Origin: Trueperaceae bacterium
GTDB taxonomy: Bacteria > Deinococcota > Deinococci > Deinococcales > Trueperaceae
DNA length: 64,000 bases
Direction of reading: 5' to 3'
NCBI GenBank assembly: GCA_034521815.1
Contig: JAXHLW010000013.1
Coordinates: 1,152,001-1,216,000 of the forward strand
The position numbers were made by a program, and so were the translations under genes. Numbering within the stretch: position 1 is the first letter of the stretch; the number at the start of each line of letters is the position of its first letter. A model generated the notes under the pieces. It searched no databases and was not told the origin of the DNA. It was given only the letters and a program-made list of their open reading frames with translations. Below, in pieces: positions 4,745 to 15,872 of the stretch.

Positions 4745-6262
4745 ATGAGCCAGCTCGTTCTCGGTCTCGCACGCGCTCTGTGCGTGCTTCTGCCCGTCGC
4801 GCTGGGTTTGGCCAGCGCACAAGACGCACCGCCCCCGAGCCACGGTGGCGAGGTCGTCGTCGCGATCGCCGCCGATCCGCCGGGATGGGATCCGACCGTG
4901 TCCACGTCTCAGGAGATCCCGCGCGTCGTCTACCACAACGTGTTCGAGGGCCTCGTCCGGTTCGACCGGAACGGCGAGATCGTGCCCGCGCTGGCCGAGT
5001 CGTGGACGCTTTCAGGTGATGCCCTCTCGCTCACGTTTCACGTCCGTCGGGGCGTGCGTTTCCACGACGGGCGTCCGTTGACGCTGAACGACATCGTGGC
5101 GAAGTTCGACCGGGCGCGAGATCCGGACTCGGGTCATACCAACGCCGCCTACTACGAGACGATCGACGCCCTCGTCGTGGACGAGGAGGCGCACACGGTC
5201 ACGTTCCTCCTGTCCAGGCCCACGCGAAGCCTGCTCTACGACCTGGCCCGGCCCGACTCGGTCGTCTACCCCGCCGGCACCGAGACCAGCCAGCGAGGTC
5301 GGCCCGTAGGCACGGGCCCGTTCCGGTTCGTGGAGTATCGCGAGGGCTCGGAGGTGCGGCTGGAGCGGTTCGAGGACTACTATCTGGACGGCGTTCCGTA
5401 TCTCGACGCCGTCCGGTTCAGGATCATCGGCGATCCCAACACCCGCTACGCGGCGCTGCGTGCTGGGGACGTGGACCTGATCGGCACGTCGCTCGCGCCC
5501 GAGCAGTTCCTGCAAGCTCGGCAGGATCCTTCGCTCGTCGCCACGGAAGGCACCGCCACGACGGAGATCACGCTGGCGATGAACAACGCGCGTGCGCCGT
5601 TCGACGACGTTCGCGTTCGACAGGCGATCACGCACGCGATCGACAAGCGCGCCATCGTCGAGGGCGCCATGTTCGGGCTGGGGACCGTCATCGGGACCCA
5701 CATGAGCCCGGCCGAGCCGTACTACCTGGATCTGACGGACACCTACCCGTACGATCCCGATCGCGCCCGAGAGCTGTTGGCCGAGGCCGGCTACCCGGAT
5801 GGGTTCGACGTCGCCTTCGAGCTGCCCGAGCCGTACGCGCTCGAGCGCCGCAGCGGCCAGGTGATCGCCCAGCAGCTCGCCGAGGTGGGGATCGACGTGG
5901 AGCTGAGCGTGGTCGAGTGGGGGACGTGGATCCAGCGCATCTTCCTCGGCGCCGACTACGACATGACGATCATCGGTCATTCCGAGCCGCGGGACATCGA
6001 CGTCTACGCCGACCCGGAGTACTACTTCCAGTACGAGAACCCACGGGTCGCCACCCTCGTGACCGAGGCGGAGTCGGCCTCGACCCGAGAGGCCGAGATC
6101 GCCGCCTACCGCGAGATCGCTCGCATCATCGCCGACGATGCCGTCGCCGTCTGGGTCTTCAGCCCTCCGTACCTGGTCGCCGCGCGCGAGGACGTGCACG
6201 GCTTCTGGACCGACCAGCCGACACCGGCGATCGACATGACCGAGGTCCATCGGGGGCCCTGA
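4745..6262 (+). CDS. ABC transporter substrate-binding protein, family 5 (peptide/nickel)
   Basis: Signal peptide, PALAESW, FHDGRPLT and PVGTGPF motifs; AGGAGG RBS. Confidence 0.92.
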   Translation: MSQLVLGLARALCVLLPVALGLASAQDAPPPSHGGEVVVAIAADPPGWDPTVSTSQEIPRVVYHNVFEGLVRFDRNGEIVPALAESWTLSGDALSLTFHVRRGVRFHDGRPLTLNDIVAKFDRARDPDSGHTNAAYYETIDALVVDEEAHTVTFLLSRPTRSLLYDLARPDSVVYPAGTETSQRGRPVGTGPFRFVEYREGSEVRLERFEDYYLDGVPYLDAVRFRIIGDPNTRYAALRAGDVDLIGTSLAPEQFLQARQDPSLVATEGTATTEITLAMNNARAPFDDVRVRQAITHAIDKRAIVEGAMFGLGTVIGTHMSPAEPYYLDLTDTYPYDPDRARELLAEAGYPDGFDVAFELPEPYALERRSGQVIAQQLAEVGIDVELSVVEWGTWIQRIFLGADYDMTIIGHSEPRDIDVYADPEYYFQYENPRVATLVTEAESASTREAEIAAYREIARIIADDAVAVWVFSPPYLVAAREDVHGFWTDQPTPAIDMTEVHRGP

Positions 6263-6314
6263 CCCGGTCCACGCGAGCGCCGGGTCGTTCCAGCGCCGCT
6301 CCCGCATCCCGCTC

Positions 6315-7262
6315 ATGCTTCTCTACCTCGTCCGTCGCGCCCTGACCGCAGTGGTGAGCGTCGTGCTCGCGTCGCTGGTGGTGTTCTCGGCTCTGCTGGC
6401 GATCCCGGGCGATCCTGCCGAGATCATCCTCGGGCTGGACGCCTCGCCCGAGGCACGGACGGCGCTTCGAGACCAGCTCGGGCTGAACCGGCCCGCCCCC
6501 GTCAGGTATCTGACGTGGGTGGCCGGCGCGTTGCGGGGCGACCTGGGCGAGTCGATCGTCTACCAGCGCCCCGTGCGTGCCCTGATCGCGGATCGGCTGG
6601 GCGTTTCGGTTCCGCTGGCCTTGGGGGCCGCCCTGATCGCCGGCCTGATCGCGCTGCCGCTGGGCCTGCTCGCGGCGCTTCGTCGGGGCACCTGGGTCGA
6701 TCCCGTCGTGACCTCGGTCGCGCAGCTGGGAGCTGCCGTACCGTCGTTCTGGCTGGGCTTGCTGTTCGTCCTGCTGTTCGCCGTCGAGCTCGGGTGGCTG
6801 CCGGCTGGAGGCTTCTCGCCCTGGGCTCGCGATCCGGTCGCCAGCATGCGGAGTCTCGTTCTGCCGATGCTGGCGCTGGGCCTCGGCCAAGCAGCGGTCA
6901 TGACGCGCATGACGCGGTCGTCCATGATCGAAGCGTTGGCGCAGGATTACGTCCGGACGGCACGCGCCAAGGGGCTTCCACCGGCTCGCGTCACCTTCGG
7001 CCACGCGCTCCGGAACGCCCTGGTCACGCTGGTCACGATCCTCGGGCTGAGCCTCACCAACGTGTTCATCGGTTCGATCGTGATCGAACAGGTCTTCGCC
7101 CTTCCTGGGCTCGGGCAGCTGGCGCTCACGGCGATCGGCACGCGCGATCTGCCTCTCGTCCAGGGGGAGATTCTGCTCTACGCCACGACCATCATCGTGT
7201 TGAGCTTCCTGGTGGATGCGTCGTACGCGCTGCTCGACCCGCGGATTCGGTACGAGGCATGA
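6315..7262 (+). CDS. Peptide ABC transporter permease (DppB/OppB-like)
   Basis: PGDPA motif, EAA loop (DYVRTARAKGL) and EQVFALPGLG. Confidence 0.92.
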   Translation: MLLYLVRRALTAVVSVVLASLVVFSALLAIPGDPAEIILGLDASPEARTALRDQLGLNRPAPVRYLTWVAGALRGDLGESIVYQRPVRALIADRLGVSVPLALGAALIAGLIALPLGLLAALRRGTWVDPVVTSVAQLGAAVPSFWLGLLFVLLFAVELGWLPAGGFSPWARDPVASMRSLVLPMLALGLGQAAVMTRMTRSSMIEALAQDYVRTARAKGLPPARVTFGHALRNALVTLVTILGLSLTNVFIGSIVIEQVFALPGLGQLALTAIGTRDLPLVQGEILLYATTIIVLSFLVDASYALLDPRIRYEA

Positions 7263-8107
7263 GCACCACCTGGAGGTCGTCTTCGGCTGGGCGGCTGCTG
7301 CGGCGAGCGGGGCCGAGCTTCTGGATCGGGGGCGCCCTCATCGTCGTCGTCGTCGCCGCAGCGCTGGTCAGCTTCGTGTGGACGCCGTACCCGCCCAACG
7401 CTCTCGACTTCTCCGTGCAGCTGCAAGGTCCTAGCTGGAGCCATCCGCTGGGCACCGACCATTTCGGGCGCGACCTGCTCAGTCGCGTGCTGGTCGGGGC
7501 GCGCTCGACGCTGTACGTCGGGGTTCTGGCCGTCGGGCTCGCATTGGGCCTCGGCAGCACCGTCGGTCTCGTGTCGGGCTGGGTGGGCGGATGGGTCGAC
7601 GACGCCGTCATGAGGCTCGTGGACGTGCTTTACGCGTTTCCTGCGATTCTGATGGCGCTGCTCCTCGCCGCGGTGTACCGCCCTGGCACGTTTACGGCGA
7701 TGACGGCCATCGGCCTCGCGACCGTCCCGATCTTCGCCCGTATCGCGCGATCGTCGGCGTTGACTCTTCGTTCGGCACCGCACGTCGAGGCGGGTCGCGC
7801 CTTGGGGGCACGACCTCGCGAGGTGCTGCTGCGTCACGTCGTTCCTGGCGCGCTGTCTCCTCTCGTGATCCAGGCCAGCCTGAGCCTGTCGGTCGCCGTG
7901 CTGGCCGAGGCGGCCCTGAGCTTCCTGGGCCTGGGCACCCCGCCGGACGTGCCTAGCTGGGGCAACATGCTGCGCGAGGCTCAAGGGTTTCTCGCCATGA
8001 GTCCGTATCCGGCGCTCGTCCCCGGGTTGGCGATCGTCGCGACCGTGCTGGGATGGAGCCTTCTCGGTGACGGCCTCCGCGACCTGTTGGACCCTCGGCT
8101 CCGCTGA
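7259..8107 (+). CDS. Peptide ABC transporter permease (DppC/OppC-like)
   Basis: HPLGTDHFGRD, EAALSFLGLG and PSWGNML motifs; ATG at 7259 overlaps the upstream stop. Confidence 0.9.
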   Translation: MSTTWRSSSAGRLLRRAGPSFWIGGALIVVVVAAALVSFVWTPYPPNALDFSVQLQGPSWSHPLGTDHFGRDLLSRVLVGARSTLYVGVLAVGLALGLGSTVGLVSGWVGGWVDDAVMRLVDVLYAFPAILMALLLAAVYRPGTFTAMTAIGLATVPIFARIARSSALTLRSAPHVEAGRALGARPREVLLRHVVPGALSPLVIQASLSLSVAVLAEAALSFLGLGTPPDVPSWGNMLREAQGFLAMSPYPALVPGLAIVATVLGWSLLGDGLRDLLDPRLR

Positions 8108-8223
8108 CCTGTCCATCTGCGTCGTGGACGGGTCGGCAACAACGCTTGCGTACGGCAACCGGGATGCAACCCTCCTCGGACAACACTCCTCTTAGGCGGG
8201 AAACCAACCGGAGGAGGTTGTCG

Positions 8224-8778
8224 ATGTCGCAAAGCACGTTAGGCGTCCACGTCCACTCGTCGCATCCAGCGTTCCTGAGTCTGATCCAGGAGGTGATGGA
8301 GCGACCGGACGTGGAGCCCCACGGAACGGGAGAGTCGGGCGTCGCGCACGTCTTGCTCGACTTCCCGCTCACGTGGACTCTTTATCAGCTCGAGCGTCTC
8401 GATAGCATCGATCGTGCTCGCACCCTCATCGTCACGCAAGCGACGCATCCTGCCTACCTCGATTGCCTCGCGAGCTACCACGTCAGCGGCGTCGCGACGA
8501 CCACGGACTCTCACGGCATCATCGCCGGTCTCTACGCAGCGGCGTCAGCGCAGCGCAGCTACCATTACCGCTCACCGTTGACGTTCATGGAGCTCCGTGT
8601 GGTCCGCCTGCTTCTGATGGGGTACGACACGCAGCGCGCAGCGAAGGATCTGGGCGTCTCGTACAAGACGGTGAACGCGCACGTCTCGAACGCGCTCTGC
8701 AAGCTGGGTTACGACAACCGAGCCCAGCTCGTCGTCCACCTGATGGGCGTCGATCCCGACTCCGACATCTTCGGCTGA
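8224..8778 (+). CDS. NarL/LuxR-type HTH regulator with a degenerate receiver-like domain
   Basis: C-terminal LTFMELRVVRLLLMG...LGVSYKTVNAHVSNALCKLG LuxR HTH; GGAGGAGG RBS before ATG 8224. Confidence 0.85.
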   Translation: MSQSTLGVHVHSSHPAFLSLIQEVMERPDVEPHGTGESGVAHVLLDFPLTWTLYQLERLDSIDRARTLIVTQATHPAYLDCLASYHVSGVATTTDSHGIIAGLYAAASAQRSYHYRSPLTFMELRVVRLLLMGYDTQRAAKDLGVSYKTVNAHVSNALCKLGYDNRAQLVVHLMGVDPDSDIFG

Positions 8779-8779
8779 G

Positions 8780-11266
8780 TCAGAGCCCCCACTCTCCGCG
8801 AATCCGGCGTACACGAGCTCGAATGAGCGGGTACGCCGGATCATCTTTGGGCGTGAGGTCCTTGGCCGCTTCCCACAGCTCGAGGTCCTCCGGGAACTTC
8901 CGGGCCAAGCGCACCGCCAGGTCCGCCTCGCCCGCGTGCATCACAGCCTGTCGAACGGCTTCGTCGATACGCTCGCGCGCTCGAATCACACCCGGCGCCT
9001 CCGACTCGGGTAGCAACGGTCCCTTGTACAACTCCAGTGCCTGGCGGGTATCCCCCGCGGCAAGGCAGGTTTCGAGGTCGACGGCGTCAACGTAGGGAGC
9101 CACGGCAAACCTATAAGGAATTGACTGAATATCGATGATCTGTCGAGCCCGCGAGACTGTCGCCTTTAGGGTACTCATTTGGCCCATCTCACCGTAAAGC
9201 TCGTACAGGAGTGCCTCGCCATTCAACCCCTCTGGATGCATTGCCAGGATGACGAATAGCTCGGCAAATCGCAAACTCAACCTGCGGCGGTTTCCTTGCT
9301 CCTCGAGGAGGCGGCTTCCGAAAACATTCAGGCGCACACGGTGCCCTGAACCTGACCCCACTAGTCGTTGAAGGCGGTCTACGTCGGCGTCCGGAGGCGC
9401 GAGGAGCACCCAACCGCTCCGCCCTAGACCAATAAGCACCTCAGAGTGCCCCAGCAGAAGACTATGTGCCAGACGTTCATTGCCACTTCGGAGCTCGTTC
9501 GCTGCAGCAGCGATCGTCAACTCCGCACGGAGTACAGCATCCGAAGCCACGAGTTGCTCCGAGAGCAACTCGCTCACGACCCTACGGTCCAGAGAGCCTC
9601 GCGCGGCTTTGATGAGTACGTCGGCTGCTCGAAGCCCAATCTTCTCGCTTTCATCCGAATGCCCAGCTAGTTCCTCTGCCACGGCCAGAGCAGTCGCCGC
9701 CTCGTCGAAGCGCCTCTGATGCAACAAGCCACGGACGAAATGCCGAGCCGCATAGCCTGGTAGTTGCGAAGAAAACTGACGGTAGAGCGACTCGTAATAG
9801 CGAGTTGCTTCCGCCGGACGTCCATTGACTAGCGCGTAGTCACCAAAGGTCGATACCAGGCCCTCGAGGGTTGGGGGCAGACCCACATCAACGCTGATCT
9901 GCACCCGTTTCAGTTGCTCTTCGCCAGCCTCGATATCGCCCACGAGCAACTGTGCGTAGGTCAGAAGATTGATGCTGGACAGGCGAAGCAGTTCCTCGCG
10001 AATGTCCCACTTCCTCAAGTCTTCGAGACTCTTCCTCGCCCAAAGTATTGCTCGGCGATACTCACCCAATTGAACATAGACCGATCCGATGCTGTTTGAG
10101 AGCTGGATGGATCGATGGTGCCTTCGCGCTTTGCGATACCCGTCAAAAGCCTCCTTGAACAGCGAGATGCCTTGAGTCAGATCACCCATCACAACATTCA
10201 AAAATCCGACGGCCGCAACAGTCTCGGGTGTTCGCGCGACGCTCATCGCGCGTTGCGCAATGGACATCGCCTCTTTGGGCCGAACGACTGACGCATATGC
10301 GGCTGAAAGGGCTGGGGCTTCTCGAGCGTACTTTTCAAGATACGCAGCCACCTGGTCTTGGATTTCGCTCTGTTCACCGAGACCGGCGTACGCTTGGAAC
10401 CACCAGTATCTGGCAACGGGATGCCTTGGAAAATCAATAACAAGCCGCGTTAGGAGATGCTTGAATCTTAAGACCTGTCCCTGTGCGAAGTACGCTTCTC
10501 CCACGTCATCAAGCATCTCAAGCGATTGGCTGTTGCTGAGACGAACCGCATCCTCGAACGCATTCGTAAGCTCGGCTTGGGACAAAACCGGAGGTACGTC
10601 TTCGACCCGTCGGCGGGAAGACAATCGAGCTGCACGAGCATTTTCCGATTGACCGCGTAGGGACGAAAGGTTCATGCCGTCTGAGTGTGATTGTAAGAAA
10701 TGCTCGTATGGCACGCCTGCGACCGCCGCGTTGTCGCCCAAGAGCTGTTGATTAACCCCTTCGTCAGCACCTGTCATTTCACGAACCTCAGCTGGCGTGA
10801 CCTCAAGGTCTTTCTCGGTCATTACGTCACCTGAGAAATCAGCAACGAGGCTACGCCATTCCTTTGTCTCGCCTGACCCGGCGACTGCAACCTTCAATCT
10901 GAATCGAGATCTTATCGACGTGACAACGGCGGCTCGGCAAAAAGCTGCGTTGTGGTCGCCATCGTTTACAAGAAGGAATAGAGGCCCCAGTTCTTCTGAA
11001 AGGCCCACGAGGTAGTTCAGTGCATACGAGTAAGGCATGCCGGTGCCGAACAAGGTCGCGCCCACAGACTCACGGACGGCACGGCTCAACTTGTTGCCGA
11101 TGGCGACTGAATCATCGCCCGCTTCAAGGGTGATCCAGATGAACGACGTAGATGCACCAGCAATTTCCTCAAAGACATACGACAGACCAAACTCCGGACG
11201 AGCATCGACAATCGTTGACGTCGATCGGAACACAATGGCTTTCGTCTGTCTTTCAAACCAGCCCAA
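8780..11266 (-). CDS. Large MalT/STAND-like regulator: degenerate NTPase, TPR sensor, C-terminal wHTH/BTAD-like effector
   Basis: WITLEAGDDS, PLFLLVNDGDH and DLEVTPAEV resemble MalT N-terminal motifs. TPR-like helices follow, then C-terminal LKATVSRAR...ALELYKGPLLP. TTG start at 11266 lies after a GGGAGA RBS; the frame is open to 11323. Confidence 0.75.
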   Translation of the reverse strand: MGWFERQTKAIVFRSTSTIVDARPEFGLSYVFEEIAGASTSFIWITLEAGDDSVAIGNKLSRAVRESVGATLFGTGMPYSYALNYLVGLSEELGPLFLLVNDGDHNAAFCRAAVVTSIRSRFRLKVAVAGSGETKEWRSLVADFSGDVMTEKDLEVTPAEVREMTGADEGVNQQLLGDNAAVAGVPYEHFLQSHSDGMNLSSLRGQSENARAARLSSRRRVEDVPPVLSQAELTNAFEDAVRLSNSQSLEMLDDVGEAYFAQGQVLRFKHLLTRLVIDFPRHPVARYWWFQAYAGLGEQSEIQDQVAAYLEKYAREAPALSAAYASVVRPKEAMSIAQRAMSVARTPETVAAVGFLNVVMGDLTQGISLFKEAFDGYRKARRHHRSIQLSNSIGSVYVQLGEYRRAILWARKSLEDLRKWDIREELLRLSSINLLTYAQLLVGDIEAGEEQLKRVQISVDVGLPPTLEGLVSTFGDYALVNGRPAEATRYYESLYRQFSSQLPGYAARHFVRGLLHQRRFDEAATALAVAEELAGHSDESEKIGLRAADVLIKAARGSLDRRVVSELLSEQLVASDAVLRAELTIAAAANELRSGNERLAHSLLLGHSEVLIGLGRSGWVLLAPPDADVDRLQRLVGSGSGHRVRLNVFGSRLLEEQGNRRRLSLRFAELFVILAMHPEGLNGEALLYELYGEMGQMSTLKATVSRARQIIDIQSIPYRFAVAPYVDAVDLETCLAAGDTRQALELYKGPLLPESEAPGVIRARERIDEAVRQAVMHAGEADLAVRLARKFPEDLELWEAAKDLTPKDDPAYPLIRARVRRIRGEWGL

Positions 11267-11588
11267 TGCGATTCTCCCGTGTTGTCGGTGACACGAAGAG
11301 CCGGTCCACGTGGCCGACGGCAACTAGGATGTCGGCTACACATACGCCGGTTTCGTTCGACATGCTCGCCTTAAGTATATTTGCCAGCAAATGCAGGGTG
11401 AGCCACTCTAATGATTTGCCGACATGTTGTGCGATATGAACCCCGTGTCTCGAACACTGGCGCCGGCGAAAAACTTCATAATCGATCACATGGTCGCTGT
11501 GGAGCACCCATCTCGTACATCGAGCGTCAGACTGGGACAGATTGAAGCCTTCGTACAATGGGGTTCCGACACTCATGCTCACACAATT

Positions 11589-11619
11589 AAGCGGGCCCGC
11601 AATCAATGCGGACCCGCTC
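11589..11619 (-). terminator. Hairpin terminator downstream of the small peptide gene
   Basis: Minus-strand GAGCGGGTCCGCA-5nt-TGCGGGCCCGCTT followed by AATTGTGT. G.U wobbles favour the minus strand. The U-tract is modest. Confidence 0.65.
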
Positions 11620-11637
11620 AGTCAGTTTGCCGGAGAG

Positions 11638-11739
11638 TTAGCGCTGCGAAAGATGAACGCCCGCGAGAACCATCAACGGAACGTTAACAACAGCAACGAA
11701 GAGTGCAGTAGCGAAGATGCGCTTTCCAGTGTTCTTCAT
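11638..11739 (-). CDS. 33-aa hydrophobic peptide MKNTGKRIFATALFVAVVNVPLMVLAGVHLSQR
   Basis: Hand-translated, below the ORF-track cutoff. Upstream AAGAGGA RBS, basic N-terminus plus one hydrophobic helix, and a hairpin immediately after the stop. Confidence 0.6.
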   Translation of the reverse strand: MKNTGKRIFATALFVAVVNVPLMVLAGVHLSQR

Positions 11740-11783
11740 TTTGTCCCATCCTCTTCTTGCACCCAGTACAGGTGCACAAGCAC

Positions 11784-11983
11784 CGTCCCAGGCCTCCCAA
11801 CCTGTTCTCGGACGATGTTGTTGGGGTCTCCCAACCCCAACGCTCTGGGTGATTAAACACCCACTTCTGACCGGTTTTGCTTAGGTTGTGGCTATCGAAC
11901 CTCTCCCAAGCTCCCGATCTCTTCCGAATACGGCGGTGACAACCACCGTTACGTTGGGGGCCTCCCAACCCTTGTTCCAACGT
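11784..11983 (-). ncRNA. Structured leader/ncRNA with repeated hairpins exposing UUGGGAG(G/A) loops
   Basis: Four TTGGGAGR copies. Three close clean stems of different sequence (11784-11814, 11820-11841, 11951-11983). Two further hairpins at 11846-11863 and 11930-11949. Confidence 0.6.
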
Positions 11984-11989
11984 GATCGG

Positions 11990-12019
11990 AAAGTAGCACG
12001 CGATGCTTGAAAGCGTCAA
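11990..12019 (-). promoter_or_regulatory. Sigma70-type promoter for the leader/peptide transcript
   Basis: -35 TTGACG (12014-12019), 18-nt spacer, extended -10 TGcTACTTT (hexamer 11990-11995). The predicted TSS near 11983 is the first base of the first hairpin. Confidence 0.6.
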
Positions 12020-12070
12020 GAGAAAAAGCGAACAGGCTCAAGGCCGCCATTTTCTCCGCACCGAACCCGA

Positions 12071-12092
12071 GTCAACTCCGTTGACGTATCGT
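12071..12092 (+). promoter_or_regulatory. Palindrome GTCAAC-TCC-GTTGAC abutting the -10 box TATCGT of the leaderless TPR gene
   Basis: Perfect 6-bp inverted repeat at 12071-12085; TATCGT at 12087-12092 lies 7 nt before ATG 12100. Confidence 0.5.
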
Positions 12093-12099
12093 GTGCGGC

Positions 12100-13326
12100 A
12101 TGGCGGAGGACAGCCACATCAGAAGTCGCGTTGAAGAAGTTCACCCTGGAGCCATGCTTGAAAGCGTCGTCCAAGGGTGGGTATACCTCGAAGACTTCGA
12201 TAGAGGTATTGAAGCCTATCGCCACATTGAAACGCCGACAGCCGACGACGATCGATGGCTTGGCGTCTGTCATTTCCAACGCGTTGAAGATGCTCTTGCA
12301 CAGCAAGCATTCGAAAGAGCGATTACAAAAGGGCAGCAGGCGGCCAGAGTCAACCTCGCGCATCTGCTTAGAATGTCAGATCGTGCCGATCGCGCGACCG
12401 ATGAACTTCAGAATGTGGATTTCGCCCGGTTGACCCCATACGATCAGGTCTTTTTCCTTCGCGTGAAGAGTATCCACGAAGAGACAAACGGGAACCTTCG
12501 CGAAGCACTTCGCTTCTCTGAAGAGGCGTGGCGAAGGCTTCAAGGCATTCCAGAGTTCTCGATCCTCGCGCCATCCATTCTGTCTCAACTGGGAATTCTT
12601 CACGGGCGTATAGGTCGTGCCCAACGGGCCATATGGTTTCTCGAGCGAGGCATTCAACTGACCTCTGGCCTCCAACAACTCAAGGCTCGCATTCGTTGGG
12701 CAACGGTCTTGGTAGCGCAAGGTCGAACCGCTGATGCCACTGAGGCGCTGGCCAACGTAGATCCATCCATGATTCCGGAACCAATGACAGTCGAAGTCGA
12801 GTGGCTTAAGGCTGAAATCGCTTGGTTACTTGGAAACAGCGAAGACGCCCTGCAGCGCTACGCCGTCGCCATCGCCGTCGCTCAGCGCCATAATGTGGTC
12901 TACGAAGAGTTCCTTTGTCAGTTAGCCCTTTCAACCATCTTTGCGTTCCGGGGTGAAGATGCTTTGGCAACCGAGCACCTACAAAGAGCACAAGGGCTTG
13001 TAAGTGATCGCTCTGACCAACTGACGTATCGGTTTCGCGAGATACTCATCTTCTCGGCAATTGGGCTGTACAGAGACGATCATGCCATCCGAGAGTTGCT
13101 TGAGACCTCAGAAGCCTTTGGCGATATGGGCTTACTTCAAGAACAAGGATTCGTTCGCTTTCACATATGCCATCTCAAGAAACGAAGTGGCGACAGTTCC
13201 TATACAGAGGAGCTTGACGCTATATATCTACTCGCTAAGAGTCTTCAGAACCCAGCTTTTCTTGAACGTGAGCTTCGGCTCGTTCCCACGATGAAAGATG
13301 TCATCGAAATGGAGCTCCCAGCCTAG
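12100..13326 (+). CDS. Tetratricopeptide-repeat protein with no recognisable effector domain
   Basis: Repeated TPR-like helical pairs (WLGVCHF..., ARVNLAHLLR, SQLGILHGRIGRAQRAIWFLERG). Lower-GC codon usage. Confidence 0.8.
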   Translation: MAEDSHIRSRVEEVHPGAMLESVVQGWVYLEDFDRGIEAYRHIETPTADDDRWLGVCHFQRVEDALAQQAFERAITKGQQAARVNLAHLLRMSDRADRATDELQNVDFARLTPYDQVFFLRVKSIHEETNGNLREALRFSEEAWRRLQGIPEFSILAPSILSQLGILHGRIGRAQRAIWFLERGIQLTSGLQQLKARIRWATVLVAQGRTADATEALANVDPSMIPEPMTVEVEWLKAEIAWLLGNSEDALQRYAVAIAVAQRHNVVYEEFLCQLALSTIFAFRGEDALATEHLQRAQGLVSDRSDQLTYRFREILIFSAIGLYRDDHAIRELLETSEAFGDMGLLQEQGFVRFHICHLKKRSGDSSYTEELDAIYLLAKSLQNPAFLERELRLVPTMKDVIEMELPA

Positions 13327-13395
13327 CTCCGGTAGCACTACCCGTTACGTGGTCAGGGTAAGAACTTTGTAAGACCCCATCGATACACTCAAGTC

Positions 13396-13490
13396 GTGGA
13401 TTCGAGGTGACTCTCCCCTTGTCATCGCCTCGCTCCCATTCTCTTCCGAACGGCGGACCCCGTACCTCCCATACGGGGTTCGCGCCTTTT
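13396..13490 (+). ncRNA. Candidate ~95-nt sRNA with CU-rich (CUCCC) loops and an intrinsic terminator
   Basis: -10 TACACT at 13384-13389. Hairpin CGAGGTGA/TCGCCTCG (13403-13432) and terminal hairpin GCGGACCCCGTA-CCTCCCA-TACGGGGTTCGC followed by GCCTTTT. G.U wobbles favour the plus strand. Confidence 0.55.
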
Positions 13491-13652
13491 GTGCCACAGA
13501 CATGATTCTCGTGCCCGCCAGGTGTCGACGGGCCGCGCCGAGCCCAGGCTGGCCCTCGTCCGCCTCTCGGCCGCGTTCCTTGCGGTCGGGTCGCGATTTG
13601 TGGTTTAATCGATATTTGCGTAAGCATCCCACGCTAGGAGGACCCCCTTTTC

Positions 13653-15872
<2,220 letters not shown>

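Follow-up and report, generated by a model that had tools for sequence, protein, structure and literature searches.

What does a bacterium gain from a gene of 33 codons lying between two large regulators? The question is raised by an open reading frame (ORF) on the minus strand of a Trueperaceae genome (11739-11638; positions refer to the window, the whole 64,000-nt stretch of DNA that was analysed). The original prediction, made from the letters alone, had described a hydrophobic peptide with its own ribosome-binding site (RBS) and terminator, either a membrane type I toxin or the signal-peptide-like precursor of a pheromone. We ask here whether the ORF is a gene, how it is expressed, what its neighbours are and which kind of product best accounts for them.

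The 33-codon reading frame and its peptide

The sequence quoted in that prediction is present, and its translation divides into a basic N-terminus (MKNTGKRIF), a hydrophobic core with an N-x-P motif, the residues V-L-A followed by G, and the tail VHLSQR before the stop. Relatives share its start and its stop: when 41 genomes (G000 and 40 relatives) were searched at the DNA level, eight relatives from five genera had matches starting at the RBS or the ATG, each with an ORF of exactly 33 codons. Profile searches located the ORF in 24 of 53 Trueperaceae genomes and in none of the 147 genomes from the order's four other families, while in a second sample 48 of 128 Trueperaceae genomes had it, representing 14 of 36 genera (two of the listed matches are weak). 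From a species collection, 456 pattern matches led to 44 confirmed loci, the ORF being read in 42, and a search of 1.84 billion representative proteins returned 47 matches to the peptide at E <= 0.001, almost all sharing the stop position and many called with over-long N-termini. The peptide gene is single-copy and, as far as these sequence collections reach, its 33-residue form is specific to one bacterial family, the Trueperaceae.

A few matches from these searches stand apart. One extra weak profile match lies inside a 473-aa frame and is probably false, and two partial loci from Firmicutes at the end of the species-collection list are probably due to chance. Some ORF-bearing contigs are labelled Bacteroidales, Thiopseudomonas and others, which we take as binning errors.

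Indels elsewhere in the window had led the original prediction to advise caution about the C-terminus. That doubt is now removed: the ORF is 33 aa long in every locus read but two (32 and 35 aa), and its stop position is occupied by any of the three stop codons (TAA 29, TGA 11 and TAG 9 in 49 distinct coding sequences). Contigs from two public DNA runs span the ORF without an indel, and none occurs in it in any of the four runs compared below. The 74 coding sequences collected comprise 49 distinct nucleotide sequences and 45 distinct peptides. Invariant residues are encoded by several synonymous codons (four each for G5 and A26, five for R33), and pairwise Nei-Gojobori comparison of the 49 distinct coding sequences gives a dN/dS of 0.21 over the whole ORF, the check on relatives that had been proposed for selection at the protein level. 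By region, dN/dS is lowest in residues 2-9 (0.013), higher in residues 31-33 (0.19) and the hydrophobic core (0.29), and highest in residues 28-30 (0.52), with synonymous sites near saturation all along the ORF (pS 0.59-0.74). Low dN/dS and varied synonymous codons together indicate that the ORF is a real gene, translated and selected as protein. RNA-level constraint as the source of the N-terminal conservation was considered and ruled out, since pS is 0.66 in residues 2-9 and the constraint there must act on the protein.

The consensus peptide is MKNTGKRIF, about 17 uncharged residues with N/S-L/M-P at positions 19-21, [V/A/G/S]-x-A-G, three variable residues and S-Q-R. Positive charges in the N-region are K2, K6 and R7. 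Position 26 (-1 relative to the putative cleavage site) is A in 49 of 49 distinct sequences, position 24 (-3) is V in 35, A in 10, G in three and S in one, position 25 (-2) is free, and P21 (-6) is present in 37 of 49. Judged by inspection, the small residues at -3 and -1, the free -2 and the proline at -6 follow the pattern of a signal peptidase I site, and the n-h-c layout with A at -1 likewise recurs in all 49 sequences. The uncharged stretch (residues 8-26) is 19 aa, more than is usual in a signal peptide and equally compatible with a membrane anchor.

One genus, represented by genomes G013 and G147, has at the position of the 33-aa ORF one of 43 aa with a textbook signal peptide ending in A-F-A or T-F-A, and the leader before it bears the motifs seen in the other genera. 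The tail of this ORF contains a duplicated hexapeptide (AGLEHR in one genome, SGAERR in the other), whose copies in any one genome are the same in protein and differ at synonymous sites (four differences in G013, two in G147), and between the genomes both copies differ at the same three of six residues. Identity in protein, divergence at synonymous sites and concerted change between species make the tail look like a processed unit; we see no ready explanation for the duplication except selection on a released hexapeptide unit, and it is the strongest single argument that the sequences offer for a processed peptide. Two further genomes with c0 lack the 33-aa frame: behind the leader in G255 there is only a 12-codon ORF, and at the c0 locus (see below) of G150 no ORF was found within 1.2 kb.

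Putative promoter, leader and a probable C-rich small RNA

The whole locus lies in a stretch of 54-59% G+C (about 9000-14000) within a genome of 71% G+C. The predicted RBS, AAGAGGA, is located at 11755-11749 on the minus strand, 9 nt 5' of the ATG, and is followed by UGGGA (11748-11744); this region (11744..11755) consists of invariant columns in 25 aligned leaders, and the consensus of the block just 5' of the ATG in relatives is cGGAAGGAUGGGA. Upstream, a putative promoter (11990..12019, minus strand) combines TTGACG (12019-12014), an 18-nt spacer and an extended -10 element, TGcTACTTT (11998-11990). The aligned leaders of relatives share the arrangement TTGAC..TGnTAnnnT; a consensus scan called no promoter at the ORF, the -10 element being weak. 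A TATACG-like motif near the locus is part of palindromic hairpins in a subset of loci.

A hairpin downstream of the ORF had also been predicted, with 13 bp starting about 20 nt after the stop. It is present and folds strongly, and only its details differ: 14 pairs including G-U, a 5-nt loop and then AAUUGUGUG, beginning 17 nt past the stop (11588..11620, minus strand). The 66-nt hairpin region folds at -31 kcal/mol (z = -4.6), and none of 200 shuffles folds as well. A simple terminator scan did not call the hairpin at 11620-11588 because its T-run is short. Among relatives, all 42 distinct downstream regions form a hairpin of -12 kcal/mol or better, followed in 25 of the 42 by at least four T in 10 nt; given a strong hairpin in every region, the gene is therefore monocistronic.

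Between promoter and start codon lies a structured 5' leader of ~245 nt (11740..11983, minus strand), about 150-250 nt long in relatives, with two to six hairpins bearing UGGGAG six-base loops. In the window these hexaloops are at 11967-11962, 11833-11828 and 11799-11794, a single-stranded G-rich block is at 11928-11900, and a further hairpin (11776-11758) stands directly 5' of the Shine-Dalgarno (SD) sequence, all on the minus strand. Of 152 UGGGAG copies, 121 fall in the loop of a stem with three or more pairs; the stems vary by genus and the loops are constant. The structure covaries: in the 25 aligned leaders 91.4% of cells are paired, vs 77.3% in shuffles (0 of 500 as high), pairing falls to 31-55% when the partners are slid, and compensatory changes occur at 12 of 17 pairs. 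Closing pairs alternate between U-G and U-A, as expected for an RNA read on the sense strand. A single-stranded leader block, UUCGGAAGAG..UGGGAGGAG, nearly repeats the RBS block; single-sequence folds pair it with a CUCC element further downstream. When the 5' module was modelled, each of 25 genomes had one match, beside the peptide gene (E below 1e-7). Rfam had nothing for the leader beyond a weak flg-Rhizobiales match (21.6 bits, E 0.15; gathering score 55).

Two other ideas about the leader were discarded. CsrA-type control of this GGA-rich RNA is ruled out, PF02599 being found in none of 41 Deinococcales genomes (G000 included) by a search that was positive in its controls (E. coli, B. subtilis and T. 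maritima). Nor was there any sign of a regulon of UGGGAG hairpins across the genome: G000 has 14, a share of 0.019, like other permutations of the loop.

Public sequencing runs holding at least part of the stretch number 20, among them two metatranscriptomes of one study. We compared two RNA and two DNA runs over 10800-12800. The RNA contigs cover only 11659-11946, that is, leader and ORF, while the DNA-run contigs also cover the flanking genes c1 and c0, which the RNA contigs do not include; as contigs of one study, carrying no strand information, they give a hint of abundant leader-ORF RNA.

Weak extra matches of the leader model brought to light a second element, located beyond c0 and, in the window, between c0 and rpsA. 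Searched for with its own model (~130 nt), the element turns up one to five times per genome in 84 of the 128 Trueperaceae genomes; these belong to 26 of 36 genera, some of which have no peptide or c0. Helix 1 of the element covaries, one pair being A-U in 15 sequences and G-C in 15. Read on the minus strand its mismatches are five A-C or C-A and no G-U, and a T-run directly follows the hairpin on the opposite, plus strand in 27 of 32 copies and on the other side in none of 32. Because of these mismatch types and T-runs, the element is most likely transcribed on the plus strand of the window (13345..13485) as a small RNA (sRNA) of ~140 nt ending in a terminator hairpin with a CCUCCCA loop and a T-run. 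The same two features speak against a minus-strand reading of the element as a leader mimic. An ORF of ~27 aa past the motif (at about 13430, minus strand) was likewise rejected as a gene, since it has no ATG in G005. Neighbours of the element include the S1 gene in 14 of 30 loci and c0 in nine of 30, and Rfam had no match at 13200-13750.

The complementary sRNA gene lies 1.6 kb from the ORF. Its CCUCCCA-loop terminator is preceded by a CCUCCUCCCAUCCUCUUCCGA-like sequence that complements the leader's G-rich block and, over a shorter length, the peptide RBS; a hand count in the window gives 13 contiguous pairs, one of them G-U. Duplexes between sRNA and RBS are 0.2 to 4.3 sd below mononucleotide shuffles in energy (12 genome pairs). 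Complementarity of this kind suggests that sRNA and leader may pair. A comparable arrangement is found in C-rich sRNAs of the RsaE/RoxS type and in target or sponge RNAs with several sites; here CUCCCA motifs, both looped and single-stranded, complement SD-like UGGGAG loops and the RBS. The phylum, however, is another one, the sRNA has no Rfam match, and it is sequence complementarity that suggests the pairing. Leader and sRNA add two structured RNAs without an Rfam family, and the sRNA, with its 84 of 128 genomes, may be a general regulator of translation initiation in Trueperaceae.

The divergent TPR protein c0 and other neighbours

Genes at 43 loci, the window included, were grouped into clusters of our own (c0, c1 and so on). 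The most constant neighbour is c0, in the window an all-TPR protein of 411 aa and the candidate receptor (12091..13326, plus strand), which is divergent from the ORF and lies 300-450 bp upstream of it in 38 of 43 loci; among the other five, two are cut by contig ends and two are rearranged. Among 128 Trueperaceae genomes, c0 is matched strongly (E <= 1e-100) in 50, and the peptide is present in 46 of those; the four without it are G013, G147, G255 and G150. Mean pairwise identity is 51% for c0 and 33% for c1. A correlation between tail identity and c0 identity (rho 0.82; 0.40 for c1) was not used, as it is confounded by common descent.

An AF2 model of c0 (pLDDT 93.9) predicts an all-helical superhelix, the TPR-type fold that would be expected of the receptor in an RRNPP pair; TPR matches in Pfam are below the cut-off, and by eye we noticed no signal peptide or membrane segment. 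In Foldseek the only full-length matches of high TM to this model are peptide-bound Rap proteins, namely RapJ-PhrC (TM 0.65-0.68/0.74-0.76, rmsd about 4) and phi3T Rap with pheromone (0.62-0.64/0.69-0.74), whereas other TPR proteins align at an rmsd of 9 or more. By VIA-align, eight of the nine best matches are Rap or NprR (Z 25.9-28.6 over about 330 residues, rmsd about 4), with Z-scores of 28.6 for RapF-PhrF, 28.3-28.5 for phi3T Rap with pheromones, 27.7 for RapJ, and 27.7 and 25.9 for NprR. Outside Rap and NprR the scores are 28.1 for MalT domain III, about 25 for APC subunits and about 22 for AimR, so the lead of Rap and NprR over unrelated TPR folds is small, only about 3 Z units. Searches of Pfam and NCBIfam assigned c0 to no RRNPP-specific family (Rap, NprR, PlcR, PrgX, Rgg or AimR homology), and phmmer against PDB sequences gave nothing below E 0.1. 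Because that lead is small and there is no sequence match, what we claim from the model is likeness of mechanism, not membership: c0 would be an RRNPP analogue or a very remote relative.

The c0 of most genera is longer (about 560 aa), and the model of its additional 150 C-terminal residues (pLDDT 79) shows a beta-sheet followed by three helices and a wing. This domain matches the DNA-binding domains of AfsR, SaeR, YycF, PhoP and EmbR at a Foldseek probability of about 1, with weak E-values of 5e-3 and above. In the window's genus c0 lacks the winged helix, is TPR-only, and is therefore Rap-like.

Downstream of the ORF lies c1 (8780..11323, minus strand), an 847-aa protein with TPR repeats and a C-terminal region like a SARP winged helix and BTAD (the BTAD match is below the cut-off). 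Proteins of this type, 820-857 aa with a SARP-like C-terminus, follow the ORF at 26 of the 43 loci, 25 of them with both genes on one strand. Immediately after the ORF, 13 of 43 loci have an HD-GYP protein, and a LuxR/GerE-type regulator is near the ORF in 10 of 43; that of the window (8146..8778, plus strand, 210 aa; GerE, 1.6e-11) adjoins c1. An Opp/Dpp-type importer module (4745..8107, plus strand) is located 3.4 kb from the ORF; it comprises a solute-binding protein of family 5 (4745-6262) and two permeases (6315-7262 and about 7260-8107), and no gene for an ATPase was noticed next to it. Its adjacency, found only in the window's genus (four loci), is circumstantial support for re-import of a peptide.

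A proposed exported signal and the alternatives

The reading that we favour, at a probability of roughly one half, is that the ORF encodes the exported propeptide of an RRNPP-like signalling pair and that the peptide is sensed by c0. Residues 1-26 would form a Sec-type signal peptide with a basic n-region, a hydrophobic core and an N-x-P helix breaker at -8 to -6, and cleavage after A26 would release a heptapeptide, in the window GVHLSQR, whose C-terminal S-Q-R is conserved and whose three middle residues vary by lineage. The divergent c0 would sense this peptide, most simply after re-import as in RRNPP systems, acting in most genera as a transcription factor (TPR plus a C-terminal winged helix of OmpR/SARP type) and here as a TPR-only protein like Rap. 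Output would probably pass through c0, through the large TPR-SARP protein c1 and, in some genera, through the HD-GYP phosphodiesterase. Synthesis of the peptide may itself be under post-transcriptional control, the UGGGAG hexaloops of the leader and its copy of the RBS block being complementary to the C-rich sRNA. Export, the cleavage site, binding of the peptide by c0 and re-import are steps that we infer. Of the two products originally suggested, the pheromone precursor is thus the better supported, by the signal layout, the duplicated tail unit and a TPR neighbour with a Rap/NprR-like predicted fold.

Several features of known RRNPP pairs (Rap-Phr, NprR-NprX, PlcR-PapR, PrgX-PrgQ and AimR-AimP) recur here. 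Each couples a small propeptide gene with a cytoplasmic TPR receptor; in our case the 33-aa ORF, which by inspection has the layout of an export signal, adjoins c0, whose modelled fold is closest to peptide-bound Rap and NprR. Arbitrium and Phr peptides have a conserved end and variable middle residues, as does the tail, the prgX and prgQ genes are divergent, as are c0 and the ORF, and Rap has no DNA-binding domain, as in the c0 of the window's genus. The differences are that the phylum is Deinococcota, not Firmicutes, that c0 has no sequence match to the RRNPP families, that the DNA-binding domain of RRNPP receptors is an N-terminal XRE-type HTH whereas in the c0 of other genera a C-terminal OmpR/SARP winged helix is found, and that the propeptide is encoded behind a long structured leader with a putative sRNA partner. 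Precursors of the Rgg/SHP and PrgQ type are likewise very short (about 20-35 aa), hydrophobic and basic at the N-terminus, with the active part C-terminal and the gene often divergent from that of the receptor. Their released part is hydrophobic and cut by Eep-type proteases, whereas the tail here is polar and basic and follows an AxA-type site, and the predicted receptor fold is a TPR of Rap/NprR type. MalT/LAL regulators resemble c0 through MalT domain III (Z 28.1), and SARPs such as AfsR through the winged helices of the C-terminal domains of c0 and c1; c0, however, has no NTPase domain, its DNA-binding domain is C-terminal where that of SARPs is N-terminal, and no MalT/LAL or SARP regulator is known to be paired with a small secreted peptide gene.

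Two observations sit less easily with an exported signal. The near-invariant MKNTGKRIF (dN/dS 0.013) is not accounted for by a generic signal peptide, and a conserved receptor (c0, 51% identity) might want a conserved ligand, whereas residues 28-30 of the tail vary (dN/dS 0.52). The first of these, set beside the high conservation of c0, is what a fixed contact would produce, and so the peptide could be an uncleaved single-pass membrane protein (N-in, C-out) whose MKNTGKRIF sits in the groove of the TPR protein c0 or c1, holding that regulator at the membrane or modulating it there, and whose outer tail reports a signal from outside. The 19-residue uncharged stretch is as long as a membrane helix, and proteins of 33 aa leave the ribosome before co-translational targeting is possible. 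This is the serious rival, though we hold it to be doubtful: an anchor that stays uncleaved does not readily account for a tail that is doubled and changes in concert in G013 and G147, the residues at -3 and -1 and the proline at -6 follow the pattern of a cleavage site, and the small ORFs beside c0-like genes elsewhere have ordinary cleavable signal peptides with shorter cores. Export without signalling to c0, for instance of an antimicrobial or RiPP-like peptide produced under the control of the neighbouring regulators, would suit the signal-like layout, the variable tail and the regulators on both sides of the ORF. It is improbable, given that the 43 loci have no modifying enzyme, immunity gene or dedicated exporter in common and that their variable neighbours are the HD-GYP protein, a methyltransferase and LuxR; moreover, an unmodified seven-residue peptide is short for an antimicrobial, and a universal neighbour with a Rap/NprR-like predicted fold suggests a ligand and its receptor.

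The type I toxin of the original prediction fares worse still. A membrane-damaging peptide whose translation is blocked by the leader and by the C-rich sRNA as antitoxin would have in common with hok, tisB and aapA1 a small hydrophobic ORF, a long folded 5' UTR with SD-like and anti-SD-like elements and a complementary small RNA, here trans-encoded and complementary to the RBS, besides its own terminator. Yet the spread of type I toxin systems is patchy and multi-copy, whereas this gene is single-copy and keeps one syntenic place, beside regulators, across 14 genera. No antisense gene was detected overlapping the ORF. The sRNA does not overlap it either and occurs in 84 of 128 genomes against 48 with the ORF, hence is no dedicated antitoxin, and the polar tail is conserved and, in one genus, duplicated; the toxin is a poor fit and very improbable. 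Scarcely credible, finally, is an incidental ORF on a transcript that works as RNA, serving the C-rich sRNA as sponge or target. The leader is indeed more elaborate than the ORF and has three to six copies of the sRNA-complementary motif, but a dN/dS of 0.21 at saturated synonymous sites, the fixed length and the interchangeable stops speak for the protein. A dual function of RNA and protein is possible and forms part of our main reading, the exported signal.

Signalling by peptides through cytoplasmic TPR proteins has been described mainly in Firmicutes so far and is treated as a trait of that phylum and its mobile elements. If our reading is true, a pair in Deinococcota means that such logic arose or spread outside Firmicutes, or that the receptor fold is much older than thought. 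In the literature we found nothing relevant on RRNPP or peptide-TPR signalling in Deinococcus or on peptide quorum sensing in Trueperaceae, and a large published RRNPP survey is described, in the available part of its text, as a scan of Firmicutes and viruses only (PMC10075063).

More tentatively, we propose a Deinococcales class of cassettes, plausible rather than probable, in which a Rap/NprR-like TPR receptor with a C-terminal OmpR/SARP winged helix is combined with a divergent gene for a Sec-exported propeptide of 33-47 aa, the propeptide mRNA of Trueperaceae being wired to the family-wide C-rich sRNA through UGGGAG hexaloops and a decoy copy of the RBS. Such wiring would couple cell-cell signalling to a global RNA regulator, and the class would carry RRNPP-type communication beyond Firmicutes. 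Proteins like c0, nearly full length and often in several copies, are present in other Deinococcales families (44 of 112, five of 62 and nine of 10 genomes sampled). The pair of ORF and c0 looks like one instance of a wider cassette type because divergent signal-peptide ORFs also occur at other c0-like loci: six of 12 such loci from other families have a divergent ORF of 34-47 aa with a signal peptide and a short Gly/Pro-rich tail. Under a stricter filter five are left, and unrelated control loci (32.2 kb) gave no match with the same filter.

Variant peptide genes and related cassettes

The 33-aa ORF (11739-11638, minus strand) is conserved in the Trueperaceae. Some genomes that carry c0, the divergent TPR protein and candidate peptide receptor, do so without the standard peptide. 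Two of these, G013 and G147, belong to one genus and encode instead a variant propeptide of 43 aa (minus strand, ~620-790 of the reversed loci L090 and L091), in which a hexapeptide of the tail occurs twice. The two copies specify the same protein sequence while differing at synonymous sites, and both have changed between the two species. In another, G255 (contamination of the genome, 9%), the leader with five UGGGAG motifs is followed only by a 12-codon ORF that is devoid of the hydrophobic part (~660-700 of the reversed locus L093) and may be a decayed copy. The 33-aa module also forms the N-terminus of a 146-aa database protein, P0031, where it precedes a HEAT-repeat domain (HEAT_2, 3e-9); this is either a natural fusion, with the module as export signal or anchor, or an artefact of read-through or assembly.

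In other Deinococcales families, divergent ORFs of 34-47 aa lie beside c0-like genes that combine TPR and winged-helix parts (L095, L096, L097, L101, L102 and L103), and these ORFs are predicted to encode Sec-type signal peptides followed by short Gly/Pro-rich tails, suggesting a wider class of peptide-receptor cassettes that includes the Deinococcus-rich family f2. The c0 proteins of other Trueperaceae genera have a C-terminal winged-helix domain of ~150 aa which, by alignment, is absent from the window's genus, where c0 (12091-13326, plus strand) stops at ~411 aa.

A C-rich sRNA-like gene downstream of c0

The space 3′ of this c0 is occupied in the window by a C-rich sRNA-like gene of ~140 nt (13345-13485, plus strand, with a T-run to ~13495), which ends in a terminator hairpin with the loop CCUCCCA. 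No match to this gene was found in Rfam. Of 128 Trueperaceae genomes, 84 carry one to five copies each, sometimes arranged in tandem, as in G020. Its complementarity to SD-like sequences raises the possibility that the sRNA regulates translation initiation in general. Elsewhere in the same genome, beyond the window (contig C13, ~1136855, minus strand), a PAS-domain gene is preceded at ~50 nt by a single hairpin with a UGGGAG loop, which may be a further target of the sRNA or a chance occurrence.

Sequence features and neighbours of the locus

Seven loci (L056, L057, L065, L068, L069, L083 and L085) contain a second long palindromic hairpin with a TTTATRCG-like sequence, ~70-110 nt past the peptide stop, between the peptide gene and the downstream HD-GYP gene; this hairpin may serve as an operator or as an additional terminator. 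In some loci, similar sequence also precedes the ORF, at a distance of ~315-385 nt.

The G+C content of the window falls to 54-59% over ~9000-14000, compared with 71% for the genome, along a stretch that reaches from c1 (the 847-aa TPR/SARP-like protein; 8780-11323, minus strand) through the peptide gene and c0 into the beginning of rpsA; the region may have been transferred, or its composition may reflect its regulatory character and richness in RNA elements. Beside the LuxR gene (8146-8778, plus strand), an Opp/Dpp-type gene set (4745-8107, plus strand) for two permeases and a solute-binding protein of family 5, with no adjoining ATPase gene seen, neighbours the peptide locus only in the window's genus.
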